From contig CBDFFH010000005.1 in the NCBI GenBank assembly GCA_965246715.1, forward strand, positions 224,001 to 288,000: 64,000 nucleotides of DNA, read 5' to 3'. Both the position numbers and the translations under genes were made by a program. The notes beneath the pieces are model-generated. The model had not been told where the DNA came from and did not search any database. It worked only from the letters and a program-made list of their open reading frames with translations. The stretch comes from Chamaesiphon sp. (GTDB lineage: Bacteria > Cyanobacteriota > Cyanobacteriia > Cyanobacteriales > Chamaesiphonaceae). Positions 3,616 through 59,702 of this stretch are shown in pieces (the stretch's first letter is position 1; every line of letters begins with the position of its first letter).

Positions 3616-3670
3616 ATTAAAAGGGATGAAGATGAGTCGGAGATGAAGATGAGATGGAGATTGAATAAAA
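3616..3670 (-). promoter_or_regulatory. 11-bp-period hexamer boxes plus -10 for the trx-ccdA-trxB operon
   Basis: Reverse strand ttttat-N5-ctccat-N5-cttcat-N5-actcat-N10-tttaat. Confidence 0.6.
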
Positions 3671-3761
3671 CTTGAAGATCGATCCCTAAAAGCTACGCTC
3701 GGCGAGAGATCGGAGGTTTGATAATTTGAAATCGAATTTCAGTCGATCGAGAATTATCGGT

Positions 3762-3816
3762 CTTCATCAAAACTTTATCTGGGCATCAGTTCTGACTCAT
3801 CTAAATTCCCCATATT
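3762..3816 (+). promoter_or_regulatory. 11-bp-period hexamer boxes plus -10 for the cupin-HK-RR operon
   Basis: cttcat-N5-ctttat-N5-catcag-N5-actcat-N10-catatt. Confidence 0.6.
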
Positions 3817-3871
3817 CCGCTTACACTAGGAGCTAGAGCAGATGAGCTAGGAATAAAGTAGGCGAGAGCAG

Positions 3872-4498
3872 ATGTCAAATTGCGATTGGTTAGTTACAAA
3901 TGAGAGTCAATGCGTGCCTTTAGAAGGTAAAGCACAATCGATCGCGACCAAAACATATTGGGCGGAAAAACCTTATCGGCTCCATCGCTTTCTCACTGAT
4001 GTTGAGGATATTATTTGGCACGAAAGTGACGATCGAGTGCGGCTCCAAAAAATCTGTCCGTTAGTCCGCAGATTACTTAATAGCTCGGAATGGATCTTAA
4101 CCAATTTTTCGCACCCCGATCCTGAAACTGGGTGGTCGGTTCAGCTTCATTATGACGAACCGGATTTCCCAATTACCGTTCAGACAGTGGTGTGGTCGCC
4201 CCAGAGTGTTTCTCCCATCCACAATCATGCTAGCTGGGGAATTGTGGCGATGTTAGACGGACAGGAGCAGAATACCTTTTATCAACGATCGCCGACATCA
4301 GAATTACCCGATTTCATCGATCGAACCGGATCGCACCTGCTAACTCCAGGTGATATTCTCTGCTTGATGCCAGAGGCAATTCACCAAATTAAAGCGAACG
4401 GTGATGAACCGACGATTAGCTTTAATGTCTATGGCGTGACTGACTACGATCGACGCTTTGAATTTAATTTAGAACAGCATACTGCGGCTATTTTCTAA
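3872..4498 (+). CDS. Cysteine-dioxygenase-like cupin
   Basis: SPIHNHASWG and downstream AIHQ give a three-His cupin site; TAATG overlap with the kinase gene. Confidence 0.8.
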   Translation: MSNCDWLVTNESQCVPLEGKAQSIATKTYWAEKPYRLHRFLTDVEDIIWHESDDRVRLQKICPLVRRLLNSSEWILTNFSHPDPETGWSVQLHYDEPDFPITVQTVVWSPQSVSPIHNHASWGIVAMLDGQEQNTFYQRSPTSELPDFIDRTGSHLLTPGDILCLMPEAIHQIKANGDEPTISFNVYGVTDYDRRFEFNLEQHTAAIF

Positions 4499-5937
4499 TG
4501 CACCATTCATTCATCAAAGCGATCGGTAATGTATTTGGCAAACGAATTTCACCAACTTCGCTTCAGTTTCGCTTGAGTGTCGAATCGATCGCCATCGCGA
4601 TCGTTAGTTTGAGTTGTGTCTCCCTTTGGGCTGGTTGGAGAATGGAGCAAACATTGATTACCACCAATAAACAGCTCCTGGAATATATCGCGACTCGCTT
4701 TCCCGAACAAGTGGAAATGTATATGGAGACTGGCGGATTGGCAGCGGGGATCGAACGCACAACCAAAAAGGTGACGACATCAGGATTAGCGATTTTAGTC
4801 CAGAGTCCCGATGGGCGGCTGCTGGGTAAGTCCGCAAACAATGATTCAGCTCCCGATAACGCCCAGATTATTAAATCGATCGTGGTACCGACAACTCCCC
4901 AAATAATTCAGTTTCGCGGACGTTCGATCGTCCTGTGCGGTAACGATCTGATGATTAATAGTAAATTAGTCGGTAAAGTCTATCTTTCCAAAGACGTTAC
5001 CACCGAACAGAATGACCTCAATCAGAGTATCTATGGTTTGGCGATCGTCAGTATTTTGGCAACCGCGATCGCGATCCTCGCGATCGTTCACCGCGTTCGC
5101 AAAACTCTAGATCCCCTTGCCCAAATTAGCCATATTGCCAGTGTGGTATCGATCGAAGATCTGAAATCATCTTCACTCCAACTCGATCGCGCACCCGATG
5201 AAATTCAAGGATTAGTCAGAGCTTTTAATCAGATGCTGCTGCGATTATCCGCGACTTGGGAACAGCAACGTCAATTTGTGGGCAATGTATCGCACGAATT
5301 ACGCACACCATTAACCACGATCGGCGGCTATCTCCAAAGTTTACTGCTCAGGGGCGATAATCTGAGTACTTATCAACAACAAGCGATCGCCACCGCTAGT
5401 GCTGAAACCACGCGTACCATTCAAATGCTCCAAGACTTGCTAGACTTAGCCAGAGCTGATAGTGGCAATTTGCACTTTCGTCAAAGTCCGGTATTTCTGA
5501 ATACATTGCTAGTCGAAGTAGCTGCTATGAGCGAAAATGTCAGCGGTCGATCGGTGAAACTACTACCAACCGATTATGATGTTGTCGCTTTAGCCGACCA
5601 AGATCGACTCCAGCAGGTATTAATCAATTTAGTGGATAATGCGATTAAGTACTCAGCAGATGCTGTCGAGATTAAACTCGAAACTAGAGACAATCTGGCG
5701 ATCGTCCAGGTGTGCGATCGGGGGATTGGGATTCCATTAGAGCATCAAAGTCGGATTTTTGAGCGGTTTTATCGGGCTGATGGAGCTGAAACTCGCTCTA
5801 GGGATGGTACTGGTTTAGGACTAGCGATCGCCAAAAGCTTAATTGAAGGCATGAATGGTAAGATTACGCTGCAATCGCAACCAAACGCAGGTTGTACTTT
5901 TACGATCGCTTTACCGATCTGGAAATCTCAATCATGA
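4498..5937 (+). CDS. Membrane sensor histidine kinase (HAMP-HisKA-HATPase)
   Basis: Two TM helices, SHELRTPL, NLVDNAIKY, DRGIGI, GTGLGL. Confidence 0.95.
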   Translation: MHHSFIKAIGNVFGKRISPTSLQFRLSVESIAIAIVSLSCVSLWAGWRMEQTLITTNKQLLEYIATRFPEQVEMYMETGGLAAGIERTTKKVTTSGLAILVQSPDGRLLGKSANNDSAPDNAQIIKSIVVPTTPQIIQFRGRSIVLCGNDLMINSKLVGKVYLSKDVTTEQNDLNQSIYGLAIVSILATAIAILAIVHRVRKTLDPLAQISHIASVVSIEDLKSSSLQLDRAPDEIQGLVRAFNQMLLRLSATWEQQRQFVGNVSHELRTPLTTIGGYLQSLLLRGDNLSTYQQQAIATASAETTRTIQMLQDLLDLARADSGNLHFRQSPVFLNTLLVEVAAMSENVSGRSVKLLPTDYDVVALADQDRLQQVLINLVDNAIKYSADAVEIKLETRDNLAIVQVCDRGIGIPLEHQSRIFERFYRADGAETRSRDGTGLGLAIAKSLIEGMNGKITLQSQPNAGCTFTIALPIWKSQS

Positions 5938-6614
5938 AGGAACATATTCTGTTAGTTGAAGATGACCCCAAATTGGCAGAGTTTATTGCAGCAGAACTCA
6001 GTTTGGAAGGTTATCGAGTGACAATTGCTACTAGTGGTATGGAGGGATTGACGATCGCTCGCGATACGCCACCAGATTCGATCGTTTTAGATTGGATGCT
6101 GCCGGAAATGTCGGGATTAGATGTTTGTCTGCGGTTGCGAAAAACAGGCTGTAAGATCCCAATTATCATGCTGACTGCTAAAGATGAAGTACCCGATCGA
6201 GTTACTGCCTTGAATGCTGGAGCCGATGACTATCTCACCAAACCTTTTAGCATTGCCGAACTGATTGCCAGGATTAATGCCAGACTCCGGCGGATGTATC
6301 CAGTACTTGATGACAATTTGCAATTTGAAGATCTGAGCTTAAATCGGCTCTCGCGAGAAGTCTATCGTGCCGAACAAAGGATCGAACTTACTGCCAAAGA
6401 GTTCGACTTACTCGAATTTATGTTGCGGCATTTGCAGCAAGTCTTGACTCGCGAACAAATCCTGGAAGCCGTCTGGGGTTATGACTTTGTGGGCGAATCA
6501 AATATCATCGAAGTCTACATTCGCGCGCTGCGGATCAAATTAGAAGTAAGTAATTCTAAGCGACTCTTGCATACAGTGCGCGGCGTTGGTTACGTCTTAC
6601 GCGATCGGGGTTGA
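5934..6614 (+). CDS. OmpR-family response regulator
   Basis: LLVEDD, LDWMLP, GADDYLTKPF, LHTVRGVGY; ATG overlaps the kinase stop. Confidence 0.95.
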   Translation: MKEHILLVEDDPKLAEFIAAELSLEGYRVTIATSGMEGLTIARDTPPDSIVLDWMLPEMSGLDVCLRLRKTGCKIPIIMLTAKDEVPDRVTALNAGADDYLTKPFSIAELIARINARLRRMYPVLDDNLQFEDLSLNRLSREVYRAEQRIELTAKEFDLLEFMLRHLQQVLTREQILEAVWGYDFVGESNIIEVYIRALRIKLEVSNSKRLLHTVRGVGYVLRDRG

Positions 6615-6693
6615 GTATTTTTTGCGCTGCTAAATTTGGGTATGAAACACCCAAATAACTCGATCGATTAATTGTCATGATTTATACAGAAAG

Positions 6694-6748
6694 CTTTATT
6701 TAATATCCATCCTATCTTCATCTGAGACTCATTTTTCTGAACTTTAAT
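6694..6748 (+). promoter_or_regulatory. 11-bp-period hexamer boxes plus -10 upstream of the spondin gene
   Basis: ctttat-N5-atccat-N5-cttcat-N5-actcat-N10-tttaat. Confidence 0.6.
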
Positions 6749-6905: not shown

Positions 6906-8042
6906 ATGCAAACTCAACTCACAATTGAAGTCGAAAATCTCGCGCCTGCGAATGGTGTCTTTATCGCGCCTGTCTGGTTTGGATTTCACAATGGCAAATT
7001 TGACACCTTCGATCTCGGTCGCCCTGCATCGCTAGGCATCGAGCGAGTTGCTGAAGATGCTAGTGCTACTGTTATCAGTACTGAGTTTACTCAATCGGGG
7101 TTTGGCACTGTTCAAGGTGTCACTCGGCGAGCAGCAGGTGCTCAGGGTCCGATCGCTCCGGCTGAAACTTCTTCTCTTACCGTGACTTTAGACTCCAGCA
7201 ACCCCAACAGTCGCTACTTCAACTATGCAGCGATGGTGGTTCCTAGTAATGATTTTTTCTTTGCTAATGACGACCAACGCGAAAATCAGATCTTTGATGC
7301 CAAGGGTAACTTCCTCGGCGCAGATTTCACTATACTGGGTAGTGAAATTTTAGATGCTGGTACCGAAGTCAATGATGAGGTTCCTGCGAATACTGCTTTT
7401 TTTGGGCAAACAACTCCAAATACGGGCGTGACTGAAAATGGTGTCATTCGGACGGCAACGGGCTTTATCCCTGGCGGTGCCATCCTGAATACGCCTCGGT
7501 TTGCCAATGTTGACTTTACCAAACCCAATTACCAAGTCGCTCGAATCCGCATTTTTAATACCATTAATGGTACTGATGGTGCAGACAACCTGACAGGCAC
7601 TAACAAGGACGATTTGATTAACGGCGGCGCAGGTGACGATAAGTTGTTTGGTGGCGCAGGTAACGACAAGTTGTTCGGTGGCTTGGGCAATGACACTCTC
7701 AATGGCGGTATTGGCGACGATATCTTGTTCGGTGGTGAGGGCAATGACACCCTGCTTGGTGGGGCTGGTGACGATCGCCTCTTCGGCGGTACTGGCTTCA
7801 ATACCCTTACGGGTGGTGTTGGTCGCGATGTATTTGGACTCGCTGCGGGTGCTGGTGTCGATACCATTACTGACTTTAACCTGGGCAGCGGCGATCGGTT
7901 GAGTTTGGCAAGTGGTTTGAAATTTAGCGATTTGACTATTTCTGGAGTTGGTCGGAATACGATCGTGAGCTTTGGTAATGATGAGCTGGCAATTTTGAAA
8001 AATGTCAGTGCTGCCAGCATTACTAGTACTGCTTTTGCCTAA
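6906..8042 (+). CDS. Spondin_N-domain protein with C-terminal RTX Ca-binding repeats
   Basis: MVVPSNDFF and LDAGTEVNDE spondin motifs; GGxGxDxL nonapeptides. Confidence 0.85.
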   Translation: MQTQLTIEVENLAPANGVFIAPVWFGFHNGKFDTFDLGRPASLGIERVAEDASATVISTEFTQSGFGTVQGVTRRAAGAQGPIAPAETSSLTVTLDSSNPNSRYFNYAAMVVPSNDFFFANDDQRENQIFDAKGNFLGADFTILGSEILDAGTEVNDEVPANTAFFGQTTPNTGVTENGVIRTATGFIPGGAILNTPRFANVDFTKPNYQVARIRIFNTINGTDGADNLTGTNKDDLINGGAGDDKLFGGAGNDKLFGGLGNDTLNGGIGDDILFGGEGNDTLLGGAGDDRLFGGTGFNTLTGGVGRDVFGLAAGAGVDTITDFNLGSGDRLSLASGLKFSDLTISGVGRNTIVSFGNDELAILKNVSAASITSTAFA

Positions 8043-11808: not shown

Positions 11809-13924
11809 AATACCTCCAAGCGTTTATGGGAGCTAGTTTATGTCGCTTTAATTTTATCATGCTGATTCTTTTATTTTAGAATGATATGGGGTGGGCAATT
11901 CCCGTCAGCTAGGTTTCAGACAATAAAGTATAACTGGCATCAATTGTCTGAATCAGAACAGATGTTAAATGGGACTATCCCTGCAAATCCGCCATCATGA
12001 CGATCGTCACCAGAAAAATTCTCTACAACCGCATCTTACAATTACTGTTGCGCCCCAAACGACTAGCTGCATTAGAGGCTTGTGCGATCGGGTTAGTCGC
12101 TGGATTAGCAGCAATGGCGTTGGGCGAAAGCGTCAGCCTGTTGGGGGGATGGCGACAGCAAGCAGCCCGTCTGGTTCCTGCGTATATAGCCCTACCGACG
12201 ATCGGCTTAATTGCTGGAGTAATAGCCGGATGGCTGGCGGGATATGTTGCCCCTGGCTCTAGTGGGAGCGGTATGTCGGAGGTAAAAGCAGTATTGGCGC
12301 GGGTGCCGATGCCAATGACGCTGCGGTTGGCTGCGGTGAAATGGCTCAGTGCCACATTAATATTGGCAGCAGGGTTTCCACTCGGACGGGAAGGCCCCAC
12401 AGTGCAAATTGGTGCGGCATTAGCCAATCAATTCAGCGACTGGTTTCCGACTTCCCCCGAACGGCGGCGACAACTAATTGCAGCGGGAGCAGGGGCGGGA
12501 GTAGCAGCGGCATTTAATGCGCCGATCGCGGGAGTGTTATTTGTAGTTGAAGAATTGCTCCAAGATGTCACGGGGATTACCTTGGGTACGGCAATTTTAG
12601 CCTCTTTTGTCGCCTCCGCCGTCGCCCGGATCGGTGGTTCTCGGAGTTGGAATCTGAATTTTGAGGCACACCTGAGTAATACCATCCACAATAGTTTTTC
12701 GGTGCCAGAGATTCCCTTTTATTTACTGTTGGGAATTTTGGCTGGAGGGTTGGGAGTTGTATTTAATCGGGGCATACTGCTGAGTTTAGGATTTTATCGG
12801 CAGTTTTTCCATGTGGCTTTGCCGTGGCGGGTTGGGCTAGCTGGATTAGTGACGGGAATTGCGCTGGCAACTCTACCCACCGTGTTTCGGGATAATGCTG
12901 GGTTGAGACAGCTATTGCTCAGTGGTGAGGCAGACTGGCAGTTAGTCGCGATCGTGTTTTGGGTCAAATTCGCGTTAATTATCTTTGTGACTGGCTCTGG
13001 GGCACCTGGGGGGCTGCTGATTCCCTCGATGACGCTGGGATCTGCGCTGGGATATTTGGTGGGGACTTTAGGGCACCATGTACTGTTGACGGGATCGCCT
13101 AGTACTTATGCCTATGTGGGGATGGCAGCTTTCTTTTGTGCCGTCTCGCGGGTGCCAATTACGGCGGTAATTCTGGTGTTCGAGATGACCAGTGATTTTA
13201 ATCTGGTGTTGCCATTAATGATTGGGGTAGTCACCGCTAATCTGGTGGCAGAAAAACTGGAAACCGGATCGCTGTACGATCGATTGTTAGAAGCTAATGG
13301 CATTCATCTAGCCGAGCTATCCAAATCGCCAGAACCCTGGACAGAATTAACAGCACATCAGGTAATGCAGCCCAAAGTAGAAACCATTGCCAGCGATCTG
13401 AGCTTGGATGAAGCATTACTGGTATTTGCCCAATCTTCCCACCATACTTTCCCCGTAATGGCAGCAGGTAAATTAGTGGGGATTGTATCCCAGCAGGATC
13501 TGGTAGATCGCTTGGCACTAGAAACGAACGAAGGTCTCTCGGTCGCAGATATCATGACTCCCGCACCCGTGACAGCAATTCCCGAAGATACACTAGCGCA
13601 TATTCTCCATTTACTCGATCGCGGTCGTTTCAGCAGTCTACCGATCGTTGATGGTCGAAAACTAGTCGGCATTATCACCCGCACCGATATTATTCGGGTG
13701 GAAGCCGCATATCTCAATGGTCGCGAACATCCCCTTGGTGCAAAAACTAGCACTTCACACATTATCTATCAAACTCGCGCACCAGAAATCGGTAAGGGAC
13801 GATTGCTCGTATTACTGAGTAATCCCAAAACTGCCAAAATGCTAATGGAGATGGCAGTAGCAATTGCACGCGATCGCGATTATGAAATCGAAGTATTGCA
13901 CGTAATTGTCGTCCCCCCACATAA

Positions 13925-15240
13925 GGTGATTCCCGATAAAGAACATACCAGTTAGGCAGGGCGGATCAGAATGTCCCATTTAGGGAGTAGTGGGTTCCTT
14001 TCTAATCTTTTTTCCACTTCTTTCATTGCTGATTTATTGAGTGAAATACCTTTTTGATAAATCTTACTATTTAATTGAATAATAGGATGCAATCCTTTCC
14101 AGGTCATACTCTCTGCCCATGCTAGCATGGCTGATACATTTAATAACTTTGCCCCATTCCAATGCTTTTCTAAAACTCCCCAGCATCTTTCAATCGGATT
14201 ATATTTGCTGTGATAAGGTGGATAATAGATTAGGTGAATAGATTTACCAATTTTATCTGAAAAGTCTACCATTCTTTTTAAGAACTGAGTTCGCACACCA
14301 CTGCTTTCAGGGCCATTATCCACCTTAATTTGGATCTTCTCGATCGTCTGCTGCTGTTCCAGTAGAAGTATGTCCCACCAGTCCTGTAATGTGTCTGCAA
14401 TAAAATCACTTGTTTTATAAGAGCTACCAAAACTAATCTGTAAAGCTCCAGTATCTTCATCAACGATTCCACATGGGATATATTTTTCTTCACAGCCCAT
14501 GTCATGGTCATTAGCTTGATTATCTCCTCTAGTTTTCCCCCCTCTACTTAAATTTCCAATATTGACTTTCGCTTTGCAGTCAATACTTAATCGTTTGATT
14601 CTCTTTGATTCTAACTGTTTTTGATGCTGGTTGATGTTCTCGAAGATATCGTTGGTTTCTGCAATTTTTTTTGAGGCTTTGCTTTCACTACTTTTCTGAG
14701 CCGATAGCCCGTTCGATTTAAAACTTCTATCATCGTACTCAGCGATGGCAATTGCTCCGGCATATAACCCTGTTGGGCTAATTGTTTGAGGGCTTCTGCC
14801 GCTGTTAATCGTGTATACGCAATCGTTGTTGCAAATGTTGGATCTTGTTGCGAATGTGACTCTGCTAATTTTTTCAGTGAATCAGCAACTTCTGGTTGTT
14901 TTTCCTCCCATCTTTTTGCCCCACTAAAGCCTGTTTGCGCTCCTACACAGATAATTCCAGTTCGTTTCTCTGCTAACCCTAGTGCTACAGTTTCTCTACT
15001 CCAACCAAATATCCTCTCTGTCAATCTAGCGTTTCCTTGGCAATATTTAATTGCCATTTCTGCTTGAAAGTAACGACGTTTTACACCGCTTAATTTAGCA
15101 GAAGCTAGCCGTAAATCTTCTCTTTGGCTACTACTTAACGTGAGTTCGGTTTTATTGCTAAACAATACTACTATCTTCCTTTCTTCGGCTTACCAATAAA
15201 ATAGTACTATAACTGGGTGGCTTTTTTATCGGGAATCACC
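13925..15240 (-). mobile_element. ISAzo13-family insertion sequence (1316 bp)
   Basis: 16-bp TIR ggtgattcccgataaa / tttatcgggaatcacc; 3-bp TAA duplication. Confidence 0.9.
13952..15165 (-). CDS. ISAzo13 transposase (two ORFs joined at an A8 run, likely -1 frameshift)
   Basis: orfA ends KPQKK at A8 near 14665-14672; orfB has IDCKAKV, DNGPESSG and YYPPYHSKYNPIER. Confidence 0.85.
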
Positions 15241-15890
15241 TAAATCATTGACAGAAGCTGCCGTTAGGACAGTCACAGGCGAACAACTCCTCCGACAGGC
15301 TAAAAACCTGGGATTAGTCTGGCAGGTGCCCGTCCATACCCAAATTCGGGTCGCTCACAACCTCTGTGCCGCCATGCTCCAGACGATCGATTCCCAACAT
15401 ATTAACCTCGCGGTGATGGGTTGGCGCGGTAGTAGTAGAGTGCCCACGGAATGGATTTTTAGTCGATTGGTCGATCCGGTGATTCAACAGGCAAATTGTG
15501 AGTTGGTACTGGTCAAATGTAACGATCGAACTCAATTCGATCGCTGGCTGGTACCAATGGCTGGCGGGCCGAATGCTCGACTGGCGATCGAACTCCTCCC
15601 CGCGCTGACTAGCTTGAGTCACAAGCCCCAAGTGCGCCTCTGTCAAGTCTTTGAGCCTGGAGATCGCCAACCAGATCTGAGCGTACTCGATCGCGCGGCT
15701 GATTTTCTCGATCCATATCTGCATGGCGCGATTACCACAGTCCCGCTCTATAATAGTTCCATTCCAGAAGCGGTATTAAACTACGCGAGACAGGATGACA
15801 GCGATGCGATCGTCTTAGGGGCGAGTCGTGCCGGAATATTACAGCAAGTGGTCAATGGCAACATTCCTGCTGCTATTTCCCAAAATAGCG

Positions 15891-15914
15891 TTCGCGGAGC
15901 GTCGCTTCTGGCGA
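15891..15914 (+). repeat. SDR5-like 24-bp insertion in HIP1 (in frame, USP domain)
   Basis: gcg[ttcgcggagcgtcgcttctggcga]atcgc. Confidence 0.8.
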
Positions 15915-16065
15915 ATCGCACGGTAATTGTCATCAGAGCGGCAATTTCCAAATCAAATTAGTACTACGGTTACGCATATTTTAGCGATCGAATCACCACC
16001 TTTGGATGATTGCTTCATCGGTACAAGTCACATCTCAACTTCACCAAGTAGGAAAAAAATAGTCA

Positions 16066-16470
16066 TCAAATTCCTTCACAGAGTCGCTGTGGTAACTGTT
16101 TGAGTACGCGATCGAATGGTGCAAAATCTTTCAAACCGTGACACAAAATCAACACTCCTTGAATAGCAATAATTGCATCTTCACCGCGCTGCTTTGCTAA
16201 TATTTCATCCAATCCCGCTGCAATCAAAACATTGGAGATTGCTTCAATCCACTGCGAAAATGCCCACCTAATTTGGGTGTGAAACAGATCGTCACTCGCT
16301 GCTTCTAATACTAAGAATGCCCACAGACAGGAATTTTGCCCCTGATTAAAAAAGCGATTCGTTTCCGCGCACATTGCCTGGAATTTATCAATTGATTTTC
16401 GATCGTTCCCAAGCAGCGGTAAAATACTCGTCTCTAGCCACAAATTAACCTGCGTCAGGGCAGCTTCCAG
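16066..16470 (-). pseudogene. TetR-family regulator lacking its N-terminal HTH
   Basis: Only the C-terminal ligand domain (AIIAIQGVLIL); 5' end fused directly to an operator-like repeat. Confidence 0.65.
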
Positions 16471-16512
16471 CGAACGAACGGTACAGTATTTATATACCGA
16501 ACGAACGGTACA
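16471..16512. promoter_or_regulatory. Tandem TetR-type operator sites
   Basis: cgaacgaacggtaca twice; full quasi-palindrome taccgaacgaacggta at 16495-16510. Confidence 0.6.
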
Positions 16513-16745
16513 AAAACAAGCTTACCTTCCGAGAGAGGATTGGGATGAAACAAGCACAACGTCATCTGCCGCAGATCGATGCGAATCAGCCTGTTTGTCC
16601 AGAGCGACTTTGGATCTTAGCTTTTCTAGCTCTCGTACCCCTATTAGAACGTGGTTTTTTACCAACCGACTGTTCGCTTTAGATTAACAGGTACACAGAT
16701 TTTCACACATCAAATATTCACCTTCACCGCATCAGGATTGAGATC

Positions 16746-20992: not shown

Positions 20993-20995
20993 CGG

Positions 20996-44266: not shown

Positions 44267-44267
44267 A

Positions 44268-44901: not shown

Positions 44902-44932
44902 TTTATTGTCATTCGATTAAATGCTAAAAAAC

Positions 44933-45625: not shown

Positions 45626-45631
45626 GCTGTG

Positions 45632-46225: not shown

Positions 46226-46482
46226 AAAATTTACCTATCAATCGAGATTTATCTTTAAAACTACAAGATGGAATTACAGTTTAGCTGTCTAACTAAAACC
46301 GATCGAGATATTGACAAACTACGTGTTGAATTAAGTCACCAGCGATAATTAAATACAAAATAGCGTGTAGGATTGGGACTCTCAGGTATCTAGGTTCGAT
46401 CGTCATCACTTGGTTGTGGCTAATTGTGCTTCATATCCTACTTAACTTATTACCTCCCCACAGCTACGAGTGAGCTAGCTAA

Positions 46483-46851
46483 TTATTTGACTTCTGCGGG
46501 TGCGAACATTTCGACTTTACCCTTTCTCAAGGCAACTACTACGTCATAGTGAGCGCAGTAGGAGAAAGTATAATCATTAGTCTTGTTGTACAAATTCACT
46601 ACATGACCGCCGCCACCAACCTGAATCCCAATTGGTTCGAGTTCGCCGAAGAAGAACCGACGGAGCGCGTCACCACCACCAAATTTCCCTTTTTCTTGGG
46701 TAATTAGAGCGATTTTTTGGTCGAAACTAAGTCCGGTAACGTCTTGAGCGTGAGCGGTACCGAACTGAGGATTGACCAAAGAATCGGGTACTCCAGCGAG
46801 GGTCGTGATGCCAACTAGGAATGCAATTGCCAAAGAACTAACTGCTTTCAT
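46483..46851 (-). CDS. Hypothetical secreted protein (paralog of 47676)
   Basis: Signal peptide; PIGIQ.GG.G.VVNLY...C...DVVVA...EVK. Confidence 0.75.
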   Translation of the reverse strand: MKAVSSLAIAFLVGITTLAGVPDSLVNPQFGTAHAQDVTGLSFDQKIALITQEKGKFGGGDALRRFFFGELEPIGIQVGGGGHVVNLYNKTNDYTFSYCAHYDVVVALRKGKVEMFAPAEVK

Positions 46852-47065
46852 GTTCGATCTCCAATTTAGTTAAGTAATTGTTTCCAGCACGTCTTGGCTG
46901 GGTATGTCTTAATTATTAACTGGAAATTTGGGTCTTAAATTAGCAGTGGTTAAGGGATAACTGTGTGGATGATGAGAGTTTTAGGGAGTAATCTTTAGGA
47001 ATTTCTCAGCAAATTCTCATCTAATCGTGTTCACATTACCGTAAAACCAGTTTTATCGTTAGTTA

Positions 47066-47465: not shown

Positions 47466-47570
47466 AACAGACCAGTGCCTACTGGCTAATCTTTTAATTT
47501 CTAGTTCGGCTTTCTCACCAAATATTACTGAGAATTAGCTGAGAACTAACTGAAAGATCTAGATCCAAAA

Positions 47571-47625
47571 ACTCAGGAAACTCTTAGTCTCAGTTCAGGA
47601 GTGGTTCAATCCTAACTGCGATTCT
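47571..47625 (+). promoter_or_regulatory. 11-bp-period hexamer boxes plus -10
   Basis: actcag-N5-tcttag-N5-gttcag-N5-gttcaa-N10-gattct. Confidence 0.55.
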
Positions 47626-47675: not shown

Positions 47676-48050
47676 ATGAAACTCACTTCTCTTCTCGCTA
47701 CCACGATCGTCAGTAGCGGCATGGCAATTTCGCTAGCTTCCTTACCAGCATTTAACCCCAATTCTTTCCAGGCATCCGCCCAAAGCATGAGCGCAAGTAA
47801 AAGTGAAAGCCAAGGCAAGATCGACCAAATTCTGGCTATCAAAGGTAAACCTGGAAGTGGGGATTTACTCCGCAAACTGTACCCAAAAGACCTCAATCCA
47901 ATTGGAATTCAAACAGGTGGAGCGGGTATGGTAGTTAACCTATACAGCAAGAAAGATAACACTACACTTTCACTCTGCACGACCTTTGATGTAGTTGTTG
48001 CAGCGAAGAAAGGTCGAATTGCTAAGTTCAAGCCAAGTGAAGTTAAATAA
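47676..48050 (+). CDS. Hypothetical secreted protein (paralog of 46483)
   Basis: Signal peptide; same conserved core as 46483. Confidence 0.75.
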   Translation: MKLTSLLATTIVSSGMAISLASLPAFNPNSFQASAQSMSASKSESQGKIDQILAIKGKPGSGDLLRKLYPKDLNPIGIQTGGAGMVVNLYSKKDNTTLSLCTTFDVVVAAKKGRIAKFKPSEVK

Positions 48051-48272
48051 TCCAATCTTCGATCGAATTGGTAACGCACAATCTTTCAAGCAAGACTTAT
48101 CTGCAATGGTTGTGCGATCGACAACTTGAAACTGTTATGCACTGTTCCAAGTAAGACAATTATGAGTTGCCTTACTTAGGTTCCATTTTTTAATAAGTTA
48201 CCGATCGCTTAACTGAATCCTCATCCCTAATCAAAATGGAATTCAATAAAATCATTGCTAAATTAACTCGAC

Positions 48273-48294
48273 TCTCGTAGAGAGGCCACACCAA
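48273..48294 (-). repeat. Degenerate SDR5-like insertion
   Basis: cgac[tctcgtagagaggccacaccaa]cgag. Confidence 0.6.
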
Positions 48295-48308
48295 CGAGGA
48301 ATAAAATA

Positions 48309-49697
48309 ATGATAAAAAATATTAGAGAAATATCCAATCCCATTCTCAGAGCGATTATTGCTGGCATCTTTCTAGGCACTTTAGTCACAATTCCTGCTGC
48401 ACTTGCAGTTCAGTTAGCGAAGTCTCCAAAAGATTTGAATGTGGAATCTACTAGTAAATTAGCCGTTTACGCCTCCCTTGCTAGTACTGCGATCGGTGCA
48501 GCAATCGGTTTAGGTGCGGGAAAACGAAAGGATGAGCGCGATCGATTATCTGACGATAGGCTAACGCGAACGAATGATCCAATTGAGATCGAATCCTCAA
48601 CTAATGGATGGAAAGATTGGCGGAAATTCATTGTCATGCGAAAAGTAAAAGAAAGCGATGGGATTACATCTTTCTATTTACACCCTGAAGATAATAGGGT
48701 AATTCCTGACTTTAGTCCCGGACAATTTTTGACGCTCAAGCTCGATATTCCCGGACAATTGAAGCCAGTAATTCGGACTTATTCACTATCCGATTACGAT
48801 CGATCGCCGATGAATTATCGGATATCAATTAAGCGGGAACTCGCCCCAGCAAATCTGAATGTTTCGCCCGGTATTGCATCCAACTTTATGCACGACAGCA
48901 TTCAGGAAGATTCGATAATTTGGGTAAAACCTCCGGCTGGCAGGTTCGTACTCGATATTTATAGTCCCAAACCTGCGGTATTAATTAGCAATGGGGTGGG
49001 GATTACGCCGATGATTGCAATGGCAAAGGCGGCGGTTCAGATCGATCCATTGCGACAGATCTGGTTCTTACATGGAGCTAGAGATGGAAATTCTCATGCT
49101 TTTCGTGATGAAATCAATGCGCTCCGTGCAAATCATCCTAATTTACACGTTATCTACTGCTATAGCCGACCAATAGCCACAGATACCGGAAAATATCATC
49201 AGCAAGGATACGTCGATTCGACGTTAATTCAAAACATTGTCGCACCAGAAATGCAGCAATTGTGTGGCTCCACTGAAGCCGATTATTTCTTATGTGGTTC
49301 GCCATCATTTATGGACGCGCTCAGAGATGGATTGAGAATGTGGGGAGTACCCGATCGTAATGTGATGTCTGAATCCTTTGATAAGGCAACGCCAAAAGCA
49401 ACAGAAACAGTTGGGGATCTAACAACAGCACAAAGCGATCCAGTCGAAATTGTATTTAGTAAATCTGGCAAAACTCACACTTGGAATCCCGCTGACGGGA
49501 CGATTTTAGAGTTTGCCGAAGCCAATGGTCTTAGTCCCGATTATAGCTGTCGGGCGGGGGTTTGCGGTACTTGTATGTGCCGGATTTTGGAGGGAGAGGT
49601 GGAGTATGAAGAATCACCATCAGCCAGTGTCGATGCTGGTTCAGTGCTGATTTGTATTTCTAAACCCAAAACAGCCAGAGTCGTTCTCGATCTCTAA
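48309..49697 (+). CDS. Membrane-anchored FAD/NAD(P)H reductase with 2Fe-2S domain (paralog of 38866)
   Basis: Two TM helices, RTYSLS, GVGITP, CRAGVCGTC. Confidence 0.85.
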   Translation: MIKNIREISNPILRAIIAGIFLGTLVTIPAALAVQLAKSPKDLNVESTSKLAVYASLASTAIGAAIGLGAGKRKDERDRLSDDRLTRTNDPIEIESSTNGWKDWRKFIVMRKVKESDGITSFYLHPEDNRVIPDFSPGQFLTLKLDIPGQLKPVIRTYSLSDYDRSPMNYRISIKRELAPANLNVSPGIASNFMHDSIQEDSIIWVKPPAGRFVLDIYSPKPAVLISNGVGITPMIAMAKAAVQIDPLRQIWFLHGARDGNSHAFRDEINALRANHPNLHVIYCYSRPIATDTGKYHQQGYVDSTLIQNIVAPEMQQLCGSTEADYFLCGSPSFMDALRDGLRMWGVPDRNVMSESFDKATPKATETVGDLTTAQSDPVEIVFSKSGKTHTWNPADGTILEFAEANGLSPDYSCRAGVCGTCMCRILEGEVEYEESPSASVDAGSVLICISKPKTARVVLDL

Positions 49698-49740
49698 AGT
49701 TATTTGTTTGGGGAATTATTCCTAACGATTAAAAAACGTC

Positions 49741-50502
49741 ATGTTATATGCGATCGAGGCTGTATGTTTAGGCATCTTCATGGTTGTGGCGACTCTAGCG
49801 ACAACCGCGTTTCAACTTCCGGCTTCACCACTCCATCAAGCGATCGCCGATCCACTCCTCCGCCGCTTATTAATTGGTATTGTCATCGGCATCACAGCAA
49901 TTTCAATTATTTATTCTCCTTGGGGTAAGCGATCGGGAGCGCATCTCAATCCGGCGGTAACATTAACGTTTTGGCGGCTCAAGAAAATTTGGACTATTGA
50001 TGCGGGATTTTATATTTTAGCTCAATGTCTGGGTGGAATCTGTGGGATTTGGTTGGCGGGATTATTAATTGGTCGATCGATCGCCGATCCTGCCATTAAC
50101 TATATTGTTACAGTTCCAGGGATAGCGGGAGAATTGGGAGCTTTTGGGGCTGAATTCCTGCTCTCCTTTGGACTGATGACTTTAGTATTGCAGGTATCAA
50201 ATCGTCCTCATTTATCGCAATTAACAGGGCTATTTTGCGGCATTTTAATCGCGATTTATATCACATTTGCAGCACCATTTTCAGGGATGAGTATGAATCC
50301 CGCTCGCAGTTTGGCTTCGGCTTTAGCTGCCCATGTATGGCATGGTTTTTGGATCTATTGCATTGCACCACCATTGGGGATGCAAGCAGCAGCAGGAGTC
50401 TATTTACGCAGTGGTAAAGGGAAGACCCAAATCCAAATTTGTAGTAAACTTTGTCCGAATAATACGACTGAGTGCATCAGCCCAACTTGTTGTCAAAAGT
50501 GA
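49741..50502 (+). CDS. MIP/aquaporin-family channel with Cys-rich tail
   Basis: SGAHLNPA and SMNPARS. Confidence 0.9.
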   Translation: MLYAIEAVCLGIFMVVATLATTAFQLPASPLHQAIADPLLRRLLIGIVIGITAISIIYSPWGKRSGAHLNPAVTLTFWRLKKIWTIDAGFYILAQCLGGICGIWLAGLLIGRSIADPAINYIVTVPGIAGELGAFGAEFLLSFGLMTLVLQVSNRPHLSQLTGLFCGILIAIYITFAAPFSGMSMNPARSLASALAAHVWHGFWIYCIAPPLGMQAAAGVYLRSGKGKTQIQICSKLCPNNTTECISPTCCQK

Positions 50503-50541
50503 CCCACCCAGCCCTACGGGCACCCCTCCTTGGAGGGGATT
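50502..50541. repeat. REP-like GC-rich double hairpin
   Basis: acccacccagccctacgggcacccctccttggaggggat. Confidence 0.55.
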
Positions 50542-50562
50542 TTCAATAAACTCACAATAAAT

Positions 50563-51372
50563 ATGATGAAACTAAACGGAAAAGTTGCGTTGGTCACTGG
50601 TAGCAGTGGCGGGATCGGTCAAAGTATTGCGATTAGATTAGCACAGGAAGGTGCGAAAGTTGTCGTTAATTATCGTTCTAATCCGCAGGGAGCAGAACAA
50701 ACACTGGAGGCAATTAAAGCGATCGATGGTGAATGTATGATGGCTGAGGGATTTTGCGATGACAATCGGGGTTATGCGATCGGTGCAGATTTGGGCATGG
50801 TTGATGATGTCCGACGATTAATTGACACAAGTATCGAACATTTTGGGACGATCGATATCTTGGTTAATAATGCGGGGATTGAAAAACGTGCTGATTTTTG
50901 GGATGTGACGGAGCAAGATTTTGATGCAGTTATGAATATCAATTTCAAAGGAGTTTTCTTTGCTACCCAATCATTTGTCAAACATCAAATTGAAAAATGC
51001 AAGCACAATGGCAGAGTTATTAATATTAGTTCCGTTCATGAAGACTTGCCATTTCCACATTTCACCTCTTACTGTGCTAGTAAAGGTGCTTTGAAAATGA
51101 TGATGCGAAATCTCTCAGTAGAATTCGGTGCTTTGGGCATCACCATCAATAACGTGGCTCCAGGTGCGATCGAAACACCGATTAATAAACAGTTATTAAG
51201 TAACCCCGCTCAATTACAACCTTTACTTAAAAATATTCCCTTGGGTCGATTGGGACAACCAGATGATATCGCTGCGGTAGTAGCTTTTTTAGCTTCAGAT
51301 GATGCTCGATATATTACGGGTTCTACGGTCGTTGTCGATGGTGGATTGATGTGGAATTACCAAGAACAATAG
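50563..51372 (+). CDS. Glucose 1-dehydrogenase-like SDR
   Basis: TGSSGGIG, NISSVHE, YCASKG, PGAIETPIN. Confidence 0.85.
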   Translation: MMKLNGKVALVTGSSGGIGQSIAIRLAQEGAKVVVNYRSNPQGAEQTLEAIKAIDGECMMAEGFCDDNRGYAIGADLGMVDDVRRLIDTSIEHFGTIDILVNNAGIEKRADFWDVTEQDFDAVMNINFKGVFFATQSFVKHQIEKCKHNGRVINISSVHEDLPFPHFTSYCASKGALKMMMRNLSVEFGALGITINNVAPGAIETPINKQLLSNPAQLQPLLKNIPLGRLGQPDDIAAVVAFLASDDARYITGSTVVVDGGLMWNYQEQ

Positions 51373-51373
51373 G

Positions 51374-52969
51374 ATGGAAATCATGATTGCCCAACATTAT
51401 GATGTGATTATTATCGGTACTGGTGCAGGCGGTGGTACCCTAGCGCATCATTTGGCTCCCAGCGGTAAAAAGATCTTAGTTCTCGAACGCGGCACATTCC
51501 TCCCCAGAGAAAAAGAAAACTGGAGTGCGCTGGAAGTTTACCAACGAGAACGATATCACACCCAGGAACAGTGGTTTGACACCAAAGATCGCGCCTTCCG
51601 TCCGGCGACGAACTATTGTGTGGGCGGTAACACAAAAGTCTATGGTGCGGCTCTGCTCAGAATGCGCGAACGGGATTTTGAAGAGGTAGTACACAAGGAT
51701 GGCATTTCGCCAGCGTGGGGGCTGAAATATGCCGATTTTGCCCCATATTACGATCGAGCAGAGCAACTTTATGACGTACATGGGCAAGCAGGTAGCGACC
51801 CCACCGAACCCACACGCAATCAGCCCTATCCTTACCCGCCAGTCAGTCACGAACTCCGAATGCAAGAGCTAGCGGATGGCTTTGGCAATGTCGGTTTGCA
51901 CCCCTTCAATCTACCATTGGGCTTGAAACTCAATGAAGTCGATCGAAGCTTGGGTAACTGCATTCGCTGTAATACTTGCGACGGTTTTCCCTGTCTGACG
52001 CAAGGGAAGGCTGATGCTGATGTCAATTGTATCGAACCGATTCGCCACAATAGTAACGTCACTTTGCTAACGGAAGCTAAGGTGACTCGCTTGCTGACTA
52101 ATGCTTCTGGGCGAGAAGTAACGCAAGTAGAAACAGAAATTGACGGGAAATTACAGACTTTTAGTGGCGATATTATTGTAGTTGCTTGTGGAGCGATTAA
52201 CTCGGCGGCATTACTATTGCGATCGAGTAACGACAAGCACCCCAATGGTTTGGCAAATAGTTCCGATTTAGTGGGACGCAATCTCATGAAACATATTTGC
52301 ACAGCGTTGGTACAACTCAGTCCTACATTCAATCCCGCAGTTTTTCAAAAAACCATCTGTATCAGCGATTTCTACTGGGGGGAACCCGACTTTCCCTACC
52401 CGATGGGTTTAATTCAAAATACAGGCAACGTCTTGGCGGATATGTTGCCAGCCGAAGCCCCAGCACTCCTAGCTCCACTGCTCAAACTGCGCCCAGAGGC
52501 AGAACTCAAGACCTTTGCCGATCGCACCGTCGGCTGGTGGCTGCAAACTGAAGACTTGCCAGATCCTAAAAATCGGGTGCGCGTTGATGGGGAGCGGCTG
52601 TATATGGACTATACACCGAATAATTTAGAGGCAAGTAACCGCCTAGTCACCCGCTGGATTGACACGCTCAAACAAGTCGATCGAGCAGAGCATACGATTC
52701 CCTTTAGTATCTATCCGCGCAACACGATGACGCTACCATCCGTGGGGCACCAGTGCGGTACTTGTAGCTTTGGCACAGATCCTACCACTTCAGTCCTAGA
52801 TTTGAACTGTCGCACCCACGATCTGGACAACCTCTATGTGGTCGATGGCAGCTTCTTTCCCTCCAGTTCGGCTGTCAATCCCACCTTGACGATTATTGCC
52901 AATGCTTTGCGAGTGGGAGATATTCTACTCGATTCTCATTCTGAGAGGCTACGCCAACGGCTGAAATAG
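51374..52969 (+). CDS. GMC-family oxidoreductase (paralog of 29365)
   Basis: GTGAGG, CIRCNTCDG, HQCGT, NPTLTIIANALR. Confidence 0.9.
   Translation: MEIMIAQHYDVIIIGTGAGGGTLAHHLAPSGKKILVLERGTFLPREKENWSALEVYQRERYHTQEQWFDTKDRAFRPATNYCVGGNTKVYGAALLRMRERDFEEVVHKDGISPAWGLKYADFAPYYDRAEQLYDVHGQAGSDPTEPTRNQPYPYPPVSHELRMQELADGFGNVGLHPFNLPLGLKLNEVDRSLGNCIRCNTCDGFPCLTQGKADADVNCIEPIRHNSNVTLLTEAKVTRLLTNASGREVTQVETEIDGKLQTFSGDIIVVACGAINSAALLLRSSNDKHPNGLANSSDLVGRNLMKHICTALVQLSPTFNPAVFQKTICISDFYWGEPDFPYPMGLIQNTGNVLADMLPAEAPALLAPLLKLRPEAELKTFADRTVGWWLQTEDLPDPKNRVRVDGERLYMDYTPNNLEASNRLVTRWIDTLKQVDRAEHTIPFSIYPRNTMTLPSVGHQCGTCSFGTDPTTSVLDLNCRTHDLDNLYVVDGSFFPSSSAVNPTLTIIANALRVGDILLDSHSERLRQRLK
52934..52957 (-). 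repeat. SDR5-like 24-bp in-frame insertion at the GMC C-terminus
   Basis: cgat[tctcattctgagaggctacgccaa]cgg; converts LDRLK to LDSHSERLRQRLK. Confidence 0.85.
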
Positions 52970-53080: not shown

Positions 53081-53135
53081 TCTTATCAATTTCTCAGGAA
53101 TCTATCAAGACAGACTCAGGTAAGAGCCTCATAGT
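53081..53135 (+). promoter_or_regulatory. 11-bp-period hexamer boxes plus -10
   Basis: tcttat-N5-tctcag-N5-tatcaa-N5-actcag-N10-catagt. Confidence 0.65.
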
Positions 53136-53173: not shown

Positions 53174-53536
53174 ATGAAACACTTTGCACTTATCGGTTTA
53201 TCAATCCTTTGTCTATCTTTAGCTGCAACTACATCTGTAAAAGCAGAAACCAGAACCGAACGGATTGCGATGTCTACAGCAACGATCATTAATAATCCTG
53301 TTGTCACCAAAAAAATCACTCCATTTAGATTAGTTTCGCTTGCTTATCAAGGTGAGTATCGGACACAAGGCATTCCTGGGTTTGCAGCATTCCAATTTGC
53401 TACTTCTAATCAGACAATTACTGCCAAAGATTTAGTTAAAGCAGCAATCGCTGCCAATCAATTATCTCCAGATGCTCAAACCGACAGTGGTTATCTCAAT
53501 GCTGTCGAGCAGCAACTATTGTCTACAGACAACTAA
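53174..53536 (+). CDS. Hypothetical secreted protein
   Basis: Signal peptide; TPF.LVSLAYQG core. Confidence 0.8.
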   Translation: MKHFALIGLSILCLSLAATTSVKAETRTERIAMSTATIINNPVVTKKITPFRLVSLAYQGEYRTQGIPGFAAFQFATSNQTITAKDLVKAAIAANQLSPDAQTDSGYLNAVEQQLLSTDN

Positions 53537-53587: not shown

Positions 53588-53642
53588 TCTTATCAAATTC
53601 TCAGCAATCGATCGCTATTATCTCAGGCAAGAGTCTGATGAT
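53588..53642 (+). promoter_or_regulatory. Duplicated hexamer-box promoter
   Basis: tcttat-N5-tctcag-N16-tctcag-N10-gatgat. Confidence 0.6.
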
Positions 53643-53677: not shown

Positions 53678-54136
53678 ATGAAACGCTTTGCACTTGTCGG
53701 TTTGTCAATTCTCTGTCTATCTTTAGCTACAACTACAGCCGTAAAAGCAGGTACCAGAACCGAACGTATCGCTATGTCAACGGAGACAGTAACAGTAACT
53801 ACAATCGGCAACACGCAACTCACCCCGTTTGCATTGCCACTACGAGCAGGAACCAGAACCGGACTTACTGCGATGTCCACAGCAACGATCGGTAGCAATC
53901 TGGCAAGCACAAAACTTACTCCATTTGGATTAGTTTCTCTTGCTTACCAAGGTGGGTATCAGACGCAGGGTATTCCTGGATTTGGTTCATTCAAAACTGG
54001 TGTTTCTAGCAAAACAATTACTGCTAAAGATTTAGTTAAAGCAGCAATCGCCTCAAATCAATTATCGCCAGATACCCAAACAGACAGTGGTTATCTCAAT
54101 GCTGTCGATCTACAATTATCGAGCACACGACAATAA
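53678..54136 (+). CDS. Hypothetical secreted protein (tandem duplicate of 53174)
   Basis: High identity to 53174; internal repeat of AGTRT...AMST. Confidence 0.8.
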   Translation: MKRFALVGLSILCLSLATTTAVKAGTRTERIAMSTETVTVTTIGNTQLTPFALPLRAGTRTGLTAMSTATIGSNLASTKLTPFGLVSLAYQGGYQTQGIPGFGSFKTGVSSKTITAKDLVKAAIASNQLSPDTQTDSGYLNAVDLQLSSTRQ

Positions 54137-58971: not shown

Positions 58972-58997
58972 TTTGCTCCAAGTTTGTATGTTTAAAC

Positions 58998-59019
58998 GAT
59001 AGTTGTTAAAACAAGTATT
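58998..59019. promoter_or_regulatory. Putative MarR operator upstream of the VOC gene
   Basis: gatagttgttaaaacaagtatt. Confidence 0.6.
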
Positions 59020-59059
59020 TGTGCTTACATAGGCTTAAATCCCTTGAATTAACTGACTG

Positions 59060-59548
59060 TCAATCTTTTTGAGGATATCTAGCTTCCACCAGCAACTCAT
59101 TCAACAAATTCAGCTTCTCTGGATTCATGTGCTCCAGTTGTTGGTGATGAAGAGTCTGCAATAACGGGTCGATGACTTCAACTTTCTGGTATCCAGCAGT
59201 TGTAATCTTGACCCAAATCACTCGGCGATCGCGATCGTCTCGGATGCGCTCGACTAATTTCATCTTTTCCAATCGATCGATTAATCGAGTTAAATCTGGA
59301 TCGTTGGCGAGCATATATTTTGCAATCGACTGACTGGGAATACCCTGTGTCCCGGCTAACATGACTACCCGCAGCACATTATAAAGTGGTGCTGAAAGTT
59401 CGTACTCTCGAAACAATTTGACAAATTCGGCCTCTAGCACTGCATGTGTGCGAATTAGATTGAGATACACCTCCTGTTCCAGAACTGCAAAGGGTTCGGA
59501 CTTATCGAGTTCTTGTTGTAAGTTTAGTTTGTTTGTGCCTTCACTCAT
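59060..59548 (-). CDS. MarR-family regulator
   Basis: DLTRLIDRLEK..LVER..DRRV..ITTAG. Confidence 0.9.
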   Translation of the reverse strand: MSEGTNKLNLQQELDKSEPFAVLEQEVYLNLIRTHAVLEAEFVKLFREYELSAPLYNVLRVVMLAGTQGIPSQSIAKYMLANDPDLTRLIDRLEKMKLVERIRDDRDRRVIWVKITTAGYQKVEVIDPLLQTLHHQQLEHMNPEKLNLLNELLVEARYPQKD

Positions 59549-59570
59549 ACTGTCGAATATATCATACGAG

Positions 59571-59592
59571 GATAGTCGTGTCAACAACTATC
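59571..59592. promoter_or_regulatory. Putative MarR autoregulatory operator
   Basis: Palindrome gatagtcgtgtcaacaactatc. Confidence 0.65.
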
Positions 59593-59636
59593 TGTAAGCA
59601 TTGATTATGCGTCGCTCCAGGAAGATGTGTAGAGCG

Positions 59637-59702
59637 TTTCATCAAATTCTCATTCTAATCTCAGGATTGGTTCAGGACTGGCTCAGATCGATCGGGCATG
59701 AT
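59637..59702 (+). promoter_or_regulatory. Five 11-bp-period hexamer boxes plus -10
   Basis: tttcat-N5-tctcat-N5-tctcag-N5-gttcag-N5-gctcag-N10-catgat. Confidence 0.75.

Follow-up and report, generated by a model that had tools for sequence, protein, structure and literature searches.

Phased direct repeats in promoters of a Chamaesiphon redox and sugar gene cluster: predicted activator sites for two paralogous Rre28-family regulators

Introduction

Activators of the PhoB type bind head-to-tail over the −35 region of their promoters, and in the pho promoters a gap of 10 nt separates the boxes from the −10 element. Arrays of short direct repeats are described here for a stretch of 64,000 nt from Chamaesiphon sp. 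(contig CBDFFH010000005.1, positions 224,001–288,000; G000:C5:224001–288000 in our genome numbering), referred to as the window, together with two OmpR-family response regulators, RR1 and RR2, that are predicted to read them. The boxes also resemble the mycobacterial MprA box. A first-pass annotation, made from the sequence alone, had placed such arrays upstream of at least 13 genes and had read them as a single island-wide regulon; promoters are named below by the start of the gene that they precede.

Among described systems, Mycobacterium tuberculosis PhoP recognizes tandem direct repeats spaced at 11 bp, to which a third or fourth repeat can be added (PMC4832192). PhoP is among the nearest solved structures (E 2e-55), and the 11-bp tandem period is common to PhoP/PhoB and the window arrays; the PhoP core (TCACAGC) and signal are different. 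In Synechocystis, the CopRS promoters (copMRS and copBAC) carry two direct repeats for an OmpR-family regulator (PMC4890671). The copM-like promoters (TTTCAT-n5-TTTCAT, 10 nt, CAGACT) have the same geometry as the window arrays and, given the 26-nt leader published for copM (PMC4890671) and the GTG start as read here, transcription of copM would begin 8 nt downstream of the gap-10 hexamer. The systems differ in recognition helix (SNVVAAQVR versus SNIIEVY[IV]R in the RR1/RR2 family), in core (TTTCAT versus CTCAG/CTCAT) and in targets (copper genes versus redox-repair and sugar genes), and membership in the CopRS regulon was rejected because helix, TTTCAT repeats and copper-resistance targets differ. 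A separate CopR-like system is encoded on contig C55 of this genome. At another locus, a small copper-chaperone-like gene (L191 1314–1508, − strand; CxxC, labelled by sequence reading) has a CopR-type TTTCAT pair upstream.

Rre28 (sll0396) of Synechocystis PCC 6803 is described as a high-influence, functionally undefined regulator in a 2026 network study (bioRxiv 10.64898/2026.06.09.731130). The Escherichia coli kinase YedV/HprS relies on periplasmic Met residues (10.1101/2021.09.09.459708), and the kinases here likewise bear outer-domain Met residues. The HprSR (YedVW)-msrPQ hypochlorite response to which it belongs resembles this cluster in its envelope Met-repair output, represented here by MsrPQ-like genes. 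The nearest described output to the envelope Met-repair genes of this cluster is the SigF/NrsF-mrpX-yedYZ hypochlorite response of Azospira, with an exported Met-rich peptide, YedYZ and linkage to msrA/msrB (PMC4436054); that response is under sigma-factor control, whereas this cluster also contains genes for thiol repair, for a thiol dioxygenase and for sugar metabolism.

Results

The boxes in the 13 named promoters are real. Within the 11.0 kb of non-coding DNA in the window, pairs of YTCAK (YTCA(G/T)) numbered 16, 11 and 4 at spacings of 11, 22 and 33 bp, compared with 0–3 pairs at each remaining spacing from 5 to 35 bp; no 11-bp-phase peak was present in the genome's other 1.17 Mb of non-coding DNA (56 pairs at 11 bp and 42 at 22 bp, range 30–152). 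Phased pairs totalled 34 in 39 intergenic segments, against a mean of 2.08 and a maximum of 7 in 300 dinucleotide shuffles, and the motif is thus enriched over both shuffled and genome-wide controls, as the first-pass annotation had anticipated. A strict matrix was then built from the boxes only, using 61 training sites, all from loci outside the Chamaesiphonaceae (13 loci, from this family plus one unassigned, were omitted). All 13 promoters scored 17.0–27.0 bits with this matrix, a level that no more than 0.08% of 5,204 further upstream regions attained, and 13 other tested upstream regions of the window scored −0.4 to 9.1 bits. With the −10 element kept out of the model, an xANNNT hexamer, a −10 predicted from sequence, was found at a gap of 10 nt in 10/13 promoters (12/13 if TTTAAT is included), versus 0–4 of 13 at other gaps (0–5 including TTTAAT).

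The array coordinates given earlier proved accurate: position 3616 is the end of the −10 element of the 3469 promoter, and 59638–59702 holds five boxes plus CATGAT. The earlier description of three to five hexamers per promoter stands for the arrays as such, with a count that includes degenerate boxes, since the best four-box frame contains two perfect YTCAK boxes in nine promoters, three in three and four in one. The 10-nt gap, said to be invariable, holds in 12/13 promoters and at 22301, 22921 and 47676 requires a degenerate last box (TTTAG or TTCAA). All 13 promoters pass the strict matrix, but they amount to about 10 independent ones, because the pairs 3469/6906, 22301/22921 and 53174/53678 are duplicates with 77–82% identity (82% for the last pair). 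Island-wide reach was not upheld: 11 of the 62 automatically called window genes have a site of at least 16 bits, none of them between 7 and 20 kb, a block that is free of boxes. When the genome was scanned with matrices built on other genomes, 39 positions reached at least 19 bits; 29 of them lay inside a 119-kb gene cluster that includes the window and five in a duplicate module on contig C13. These positions overlap, and the training set included same-genus loci.

The first-pass annotation had noted boxes ending mostly in CAT at one end of the window and mostly in CAG elsewhere, and had suggested two related regulators. This suggestion was supported and could be sharpened. RR1 is encoded in the only cupin–kinase–OmpR operon of the window, and its paralogue RR2 lies 45 kb beyond the window at G000:C5:332693–333397. 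The two are 63% identical, and both have receiver and winged-helix domains, an acceptor Asp and partner kinases; HK2, the kinase of RR2 (C5:326845–328365), is 49% identical to HK1. Three recognition-helix positions differ, the helix reading EVYIRALR in RR1-type (Ala-type) and EVY[IV]RYLR in RR2-type (Tyr-type) regulators. A frameshifted RR2 copy with its promoters is present in the duplicate module (G000:C13:13600–21230, L067).

Across 66 loci, the last base of the box was 69 T/18 G beside Ala-type and 23 T/84 G beside Tyr-type regulators, and held-out loci gave 6 T/2 G and 4 T/17 G, respectively. A secreted Cys-repeat family has CAT/CAT boxes in 15/17 Ala-linked loci and CAG/CAG boxes in 3/3 Tyr loci, with the expected type in 2/2 Tyr and 2/3 Ala held-out loci. 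Because one target family switches boxes with the regulator type, box type appears to follow the regulator rather than the target. The switching Ala/Tyr residue aligns with PhoP Tyr220, a base-contacting residue for which reading of the corresponding base is not demonstrated in that study (PMC4832192). Of the 13 window promoters, two are clearly of the CAT type (3469 and 6906), two are mixed (3872 and 43332) and nine are better fitted by the CAG model; further CAG arrays lie at C5:305.3, 312.8, 315.0–315.1, 325.7 and 334.9 kb. These sequence comparisons point to two putative regulons spanning part of the cluster, in place of a single island-wide one: CAT boxes at three promoters around the thiol-dioxygenase operon, and CAG boxes at about 10 promoters tracking RR2. 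Since the second regulator is encoded outside the window, the tests that had been aimed at the regulator at 5934–6614 would probably reach 3 of the 13 promoters.

Conservation was followed by counting 11-bp pairs near relatives of the kinase, cupin and regulator, leaving out a chromosomal cupin class without kinase or boxes (L024–L030, among the matches listed). There were 28 pairs in 16 cyanobacterial loci versus 5 in 16 non-cyanobacterial ones, 31 in a set of 18, 16 in 30 short loci that include one from this genome itself, and 18 in 20 held-out loci. At sites picked on boxes alone, the gap-10 hexamer was present at 25/44 and 25/39, at 17/35 Tyr-type and 13/26 Ala-type sites when the own family was left out, and at 6/13 sites in held-out loci. 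A site was found in 23/42 Tyr-type and 22/24 Ala-type loci. The geometry, this conservation in other genera and the linkage to OmpR-family genes all back the earlier assignment of the boxes to an OmpR/PhoB-type activator. In PCC 7002, plasmid pAQ7 (L083) carries an Ala-type cupin–kinase–regulator module (regulator SYNPCC7002_RS15995) with arrays at 3271 (−) and 3367 (+), beside the ergothioneine genes egtB/egtD. The intergenic DNA of G325 (L200, L204, L208 and others) holds many copies of a dispersed repeat that mimics the motif, its CTCAG units being spaced 11 bp apart.

RR2 is the reciprocal best match of Rre28 (64% identity, 292 bits, same recognition helix), with RR1 second at 57%, and the best RR2 match in 4/5 genomes of one genus had an E value below 1e-90. 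At locus L161 the best match is a 224-aa protein with Cys65 that is bounded by both published rre28 primers; an initial assignment of RR2 to Rre3 (sll0649) was abandoned, as the best match bears the rre28 primers. The histidine phosphatase encoded upstream of rre28 shares 58% identity with the gene that closes the run starting at 59800. Rre28 is widespread, with relatives in 163 of the 251 genomes from the order. Other identities were rejected on score: RR1/RR2 gave 254/286 bits with the NblR model NF045914 (cut-off 300), with which the genome's own NblR on contig C42 gave 324 bits, and both fell below the PhoB cut-off. With the HprR model, RR1 and RR2 reached 171 and 185 bits, so far under the cut-off of 353 that membership in HprSR (YedVW) was rejected and the two are best regarded as analogous rather than orthologous to HprR.

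The arrays and the main genes next to them are collected in Table 1. Operon membership was assigned from gene gaps.

Table 1. Box arrays and associated genes in the window
Feature	Positions	Strand	Score or assignment	Remark
Secreted Cys-repeat thioredoxin (2969–3469), truncated copy, CcdA/DsbD-TM, thioredoxin reductase, thioredoxin	501–3469	−	Pfam/NCBIfam	
CAT-type array TTTAT/TCCAT/TTCAT/CTCAT, 10 nt, TTTAAT	3616–3669	−	27.0 bits	precedes secreted Cys-repeat thioredoxin-CcdA-TrxB-TrxA genes
Mixed array TTCAT/TTTAT/ATCAG/CTCAT, 10 nt, CATATT	3763–3816	+	21.1 bits	precedes cupin–kinase–regulator operon
Cupin, thiol dioxygenase family	3872–4498	+	matches 3-mercaptopropionate/cysteine dioxygenase structures, E 1.5e-16	
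Sensor kinase HK1	4498–5937	+	domain calls	two membrane helices, outer domain, HisKA, HATPase
OmpR-family regulator RR1 (Ala type)	5934–6614	+	helix SNIIEVYIRALR	predicted reader of CAT boxes
CAT-type array, 10 nt, TTTAAT	6695–6748	+	27.0 bits	precedes spondin-domain/RTX-repeat protein 6906–8042
msrB and msrA	20034–21490	−	own upstream regions 3–4 bits	
CAG-type array, TAGACT at gap 10 after degenerate TTTAG	22348–22412	−	20.6 bits	precedes Met-rich peptide 22053–22301
CAG-type array, 10 nt, TAAACT	22966–23019	−	19.0 bits	precedes MXKDX Met-rich peptide 22676–22921
CTCAG/CTCAG, 10 nt, CATACT	35067–35120	−	19.9 bits	precedes gene run 34777–23787
TTCAT/CTCAG/CTCAG, 10 nt, CACGCT	36163–36216	−	20.6 bits	precedes SDR 35281–36039
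CTCAG/TTCAG, 10 nt, TATTTT	42448–42501	−	19.4 bits	precedes gene run 42334–36390
CTCAG/TTCAT, 10 nt, CATTAT	43380–43433	−	A 17.4, Y 15.0 bits	class ambiguous; precedes secreted hypothetical 42895–43332
Secreted 122-aa protein, redoxin, CcdA, cytochrome b, MsrP-like molybdoenzyme	43553–46851	−	8.3 bits	weak in-orientation site
Orphan array CTCAG/CTCAT	46983–47036	+	16.7 bits	faces into intergenic gap; followed by short ORFs only
Orphan array TTCAG/CTCAG/CTCAG	47512–47565	−	21.2 bits	divergent partner of 47676 promoter
CAG-type array, 10 nt, GATTCT	47572–47625	+	18.6 bits	precedes gene run 47676–52969
CAG-type array, 10 nt, CATAGT	53082–53135	+	17.8 bits	precedes secreted hypothetical 53174–53536
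Duplicate CAG-type array, 10 nt, GATGAT	53589–53642	+	17.0 bits	precedes 53678–54136, debranching enzyme, dienelactone hydrolase
TTCAT/CTCAT/CTCAG/TTCAG/CTCAG, 10 nt, CATGAT	59638–59702	+	26.2 bits	precedes GH63-transaldolase

On the CAT side, the layout of the 3469 promoter is repeated in 15/17 Ala-type loci for its secreted Cys-repeat target family, sites lie upstream of the cupin in 12 Ala-type loci, and the 6906 array is conserved in four other loci. The cupin–kinase–regulator operon is predicted from its own array to be autoregulated. A single-sequence AlphaFold model of the cupin (pLDDT 36.5) was not used.

On the CAG side, the peptide at 22676–22921 matched TIGR02953 at 44 bits (cut-off 41) and that at 22053–22301 fell below the cut-off; a third copy at 21563–21919, upstream of msrB, is degenerate and looks frameshifted. 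The cluster contains three Met-rich peptides, two msrA/msrB pairs and two MsrPQ-like runs with CcdA and redoxin; the run paralogous to 43553–46851, outside the window, is preceded by CTCAG-n6-CTCAG-n10-TAGAAT. By Pfam/NCBIfam, the run 34777–23787 encodes a debranching enzyme, RclC-like DUF417, SDR, GMC, glyoxalase, aquaporin, GH63 and LLM proteins. Between its array and the debranching-enzyme start lie 310 nt (34777–35067), far longer than at other sites, and a long leader or a small RNA is possible there. The run 42334–36390 encodes a debranching enzyme, a ferredoxin-reductase-like protein, an RclA/MerA-like oxidoreductase and a peroxiredoxin-CSD protein, the last (36390–37232) being a cold-shock domain fused to a peroxiredoxin-like domain. 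The run 47676–52969 encodes a secreted 124-aa protein, a ferredoxin-reductase-like protein, an aquaporin, a glucose-dehydrogenase-like SDR and a GMC protein, and the run from 59800 continues beyond the window with G6PDH, glucokinase, aldolase and histidine phosphatase. Outside the window, a chlorite-dismutase-family gene (G000:C5:305405–305959; L065 1405–1959, −) has arrays on either side, on both strands.

The products of 42895–43332, 53174–53536, 53678–54136, 46483–46851 and 47676–48050 fall into two cyanobacterial families of small secreted proteins that match nothing in Pfam or NCBIfam, and an ESM Atlas search with the 47676 and 53174 proteins returned hypothetical cyanobacterial clusters only. 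The 121–124 aa secreted family is the most conserved CAG-box target, with sites in nine Tyr-type loci; a secreted protein without family match, a DMT permease and the kinase itself are the Tyr-type targets with the widest conservation. At G000:C4:4640, a third DMT permease gene is accompanied by a CAG-type site of its own. Sites of GH63, debranching-enzyme, GMC and msrB genes occur in other genomes in one or two loci each, including a direct msrB site in G454 (L215).

The promoter orthologous to that of 47676 diverges elsewhere from a DMT permease or kinase gene. The array at 46983–47036 (+), likely a remnant of an ancestral divergent promoter, faces that at 47512–47565 (−), with only short ORFs between them; the facing pair may be either divergent-promoter remnants or promoters of a small RNA or peptide.

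Window genes assigned by Pfam/NCBIfam include thioredoxin, CcdA, MsrA/B, MsrPQ-like, RclA-like, RclC-like, glucosidase, GMC and aquaporin genes, and the nearest kinase relative (95% identical) is from a Chamaesiphon metagenome-assembled genome. The cluster runs past the window to about C5:336,000, with phage-integrase genes at both ends (C5:217080 and C5:335294). Its GC content and HIP1 density are the genome's own values, the composition is not foreign, and ARAGORN found no tRNA at the cluster border; a border tRNA hinted at by a translated ORF was dropped, as ARAGORN gave no confirmation. Status as an island is therefore not established. At 11997–15961, a ClC/CBS/Usp channel gene is split by an ISAzo13 transposase, and uninterrupted versions (882–899 aa) adjoin the same regulator in L039 and L042. 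A TetR C-terminal fragment and a glutathione S-transferase broken into two ORFs lie at 16066–17373.

Discussion

We put at roughly 70% the probability that the boxes are activator sites for two paralogous Rre28-family regulators that switch on genes for envelope repair and sugar catabolism, probably in response to oxidative damage. The promoter architecture is of the known PhoB/CopR type and the mechanism would be an ordinary one, in which phosphorylated regulators bind head-to-tail over the −35 region and recruit RNA polymerase to weak promoters. For RR1, the predicted sites are the CAT boxes at its own operon, at the thioredoxin/CcdA/TrxB thiol-repair genes and at the spondin protein gene. 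RR2, with HK2, would read CAG boxes at about 10 window promoters and at least five outside, its predicted targets being Met-rich peptides, MsrA/B, MsrPQ-like, RclA/RclC-like, glucosidase and pentose-phosphate genes. The glucosidases, G6PDH and transaldolase may supply NADPH. The signal may be oxidation of envelope Met/Cys by reactive chlorine or peroxide, sensed by the kinase outer domain, which in 50 kinases has Met after the first membrane helix in 39, His in 36 and Cys in 39; this is the least certain step, at about even odds.

A number of observations weigh against this interpretation. The arrays at 3872 and 43332 are among several mixed sites. In a quick tree with unresolved deep branches, the Ala-type regulators form one clade (SH-aLRT 100), so the link between residue and box represents a single evolutionary event, and other clade-specific changes could explain the match. 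In-orientation sites were absent within about 10 kb in 19/42 Tyr-type, 2/24 Ala-type and 10/20 held-out loci. HK2 of this genome is without the conserved Cys. No strong site lies directly before msrA, msrB or the MsrPQ-like operon of the window, which also speaks against island-wide control; msrB/msrA may possibly be read through from the 22301 promoter. The Rre28 protein of L161 (1498–2172, −) has Asn at the phospho-acceptor position, and a search of G184 and G113 that found 3/3 controls gave no related sensor domain, whereas RR1 and RR2 keep Asp and kinases; on these grounds, the L161 protein may be a decaying or pseudo-receiver regulator. Its close relatives in L160 and L162 keep Asp. In three genomes of the L161 genus, 0/30 pattern matches lay before a cluster-gene homologue; among the 30, promoters of copM-like and further copper genes with this geometry serve as a positive control.

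The mixed arrays and the single origin of the Ala clade would also suit one regulon with cross-reading, in which every box is open to both regulators, or to RR1 alone, and the contrast between CAT and CAG reflects promoter ancestry. The 63% identity of RR1 and RR2, with three helix differences, fits such a scheme, as do the CAG boxes at the cupin promoter of the PCC 7002 plasmid locus despite its Ala-type regulator. However, in the secreted Cys-repeat family the boxes change along with the type of regulator and the xxxAAT −10 is retained, CAG sites adjoin Tyr-type regulators in 23 loci, and we hold cross-reading to be improbable. That the boxes are bound by an already described regulator from another part of the genome, NblR or a CopR-like protein, is more improbable still: although the helix of the NblR on C42 is essentially that of RR2 and CopR-type promoters share the geometry TTCAT-n6-TTCAT-n10, the three nblA upstream regions score 1–6 bits, the C55 protein differs in its helix, has a separate TTTCAT pair and scores 8.6 bits in its upstream region, and sites in other genomes cluster beside RR1/RR2-family genes. 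We give next to no credence to the arrays being non-regulatory remnants of duplicated promoters or a short dispersed repeat. The three duplicated pairs, the two orphan arrays at 47.0–47.6 kb and the G325 repeat, which accounts for most of the 22 matches in that genome, are what such remnants would look like, but spacers differ among about 10 unrelated promoters while the gap to the −10 is fixed, and the pattern is conserved across families and in held-out loci.

The trigger is a separate matter. The sites may be correct and the signal a general stress (desiccation, darkness or low oxygen, metal), a reading that concerns the signal only, overlaps with the activator-site interpretation and in our view falls somewhat short of an even chance. 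It draws on the numerous sugar-enzyme and aquaporin targets, on the leading conserved Tyr-type targets (unknown secreted protein, DMT permease and kinase), on related modules near arsenic and ergothioneine genes, and on the best NCBIfam match of HK1, a heavy-metal sensor subfamily, below cut-off. Set against it are the Met-rich peptides, MsrA/B, MsrPQ-like, CcdA/redoxin, RclA-like and RclC-like genes and the chlorite-dismutase-family gene in the cluster, as well as the direct msrB site in G454. A wider proposal, tentative and on balance doubtful, is that Rre28-family systems are cyanobacterial sensors of envelope Met/Cys oxidation, counterparts of HprSR, split by duplication and one Tyr-to-Ala change into insulated circuits: a CAG circuit serving methionine repair and the supply of NADPH, and a CAT circuit for thiol repair coupled to the thiol dioxygenase.

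The literature searched, which lacked most subscription papers, yielded no account of this motif or of a regulon for Rre28. The present analysis gives the Rre28 family a concrete predicted binding site, a promoter geometry, a target list and a candidate signal. The RR1/RR2 pair would offer a natural one-residue, one-base case for the avoidance of cross-talk among OmpR-family regulators, and with an Ala-type module and its boxes on plasmid pAQ7 of PCC 7002, the function of the family is directly testable.

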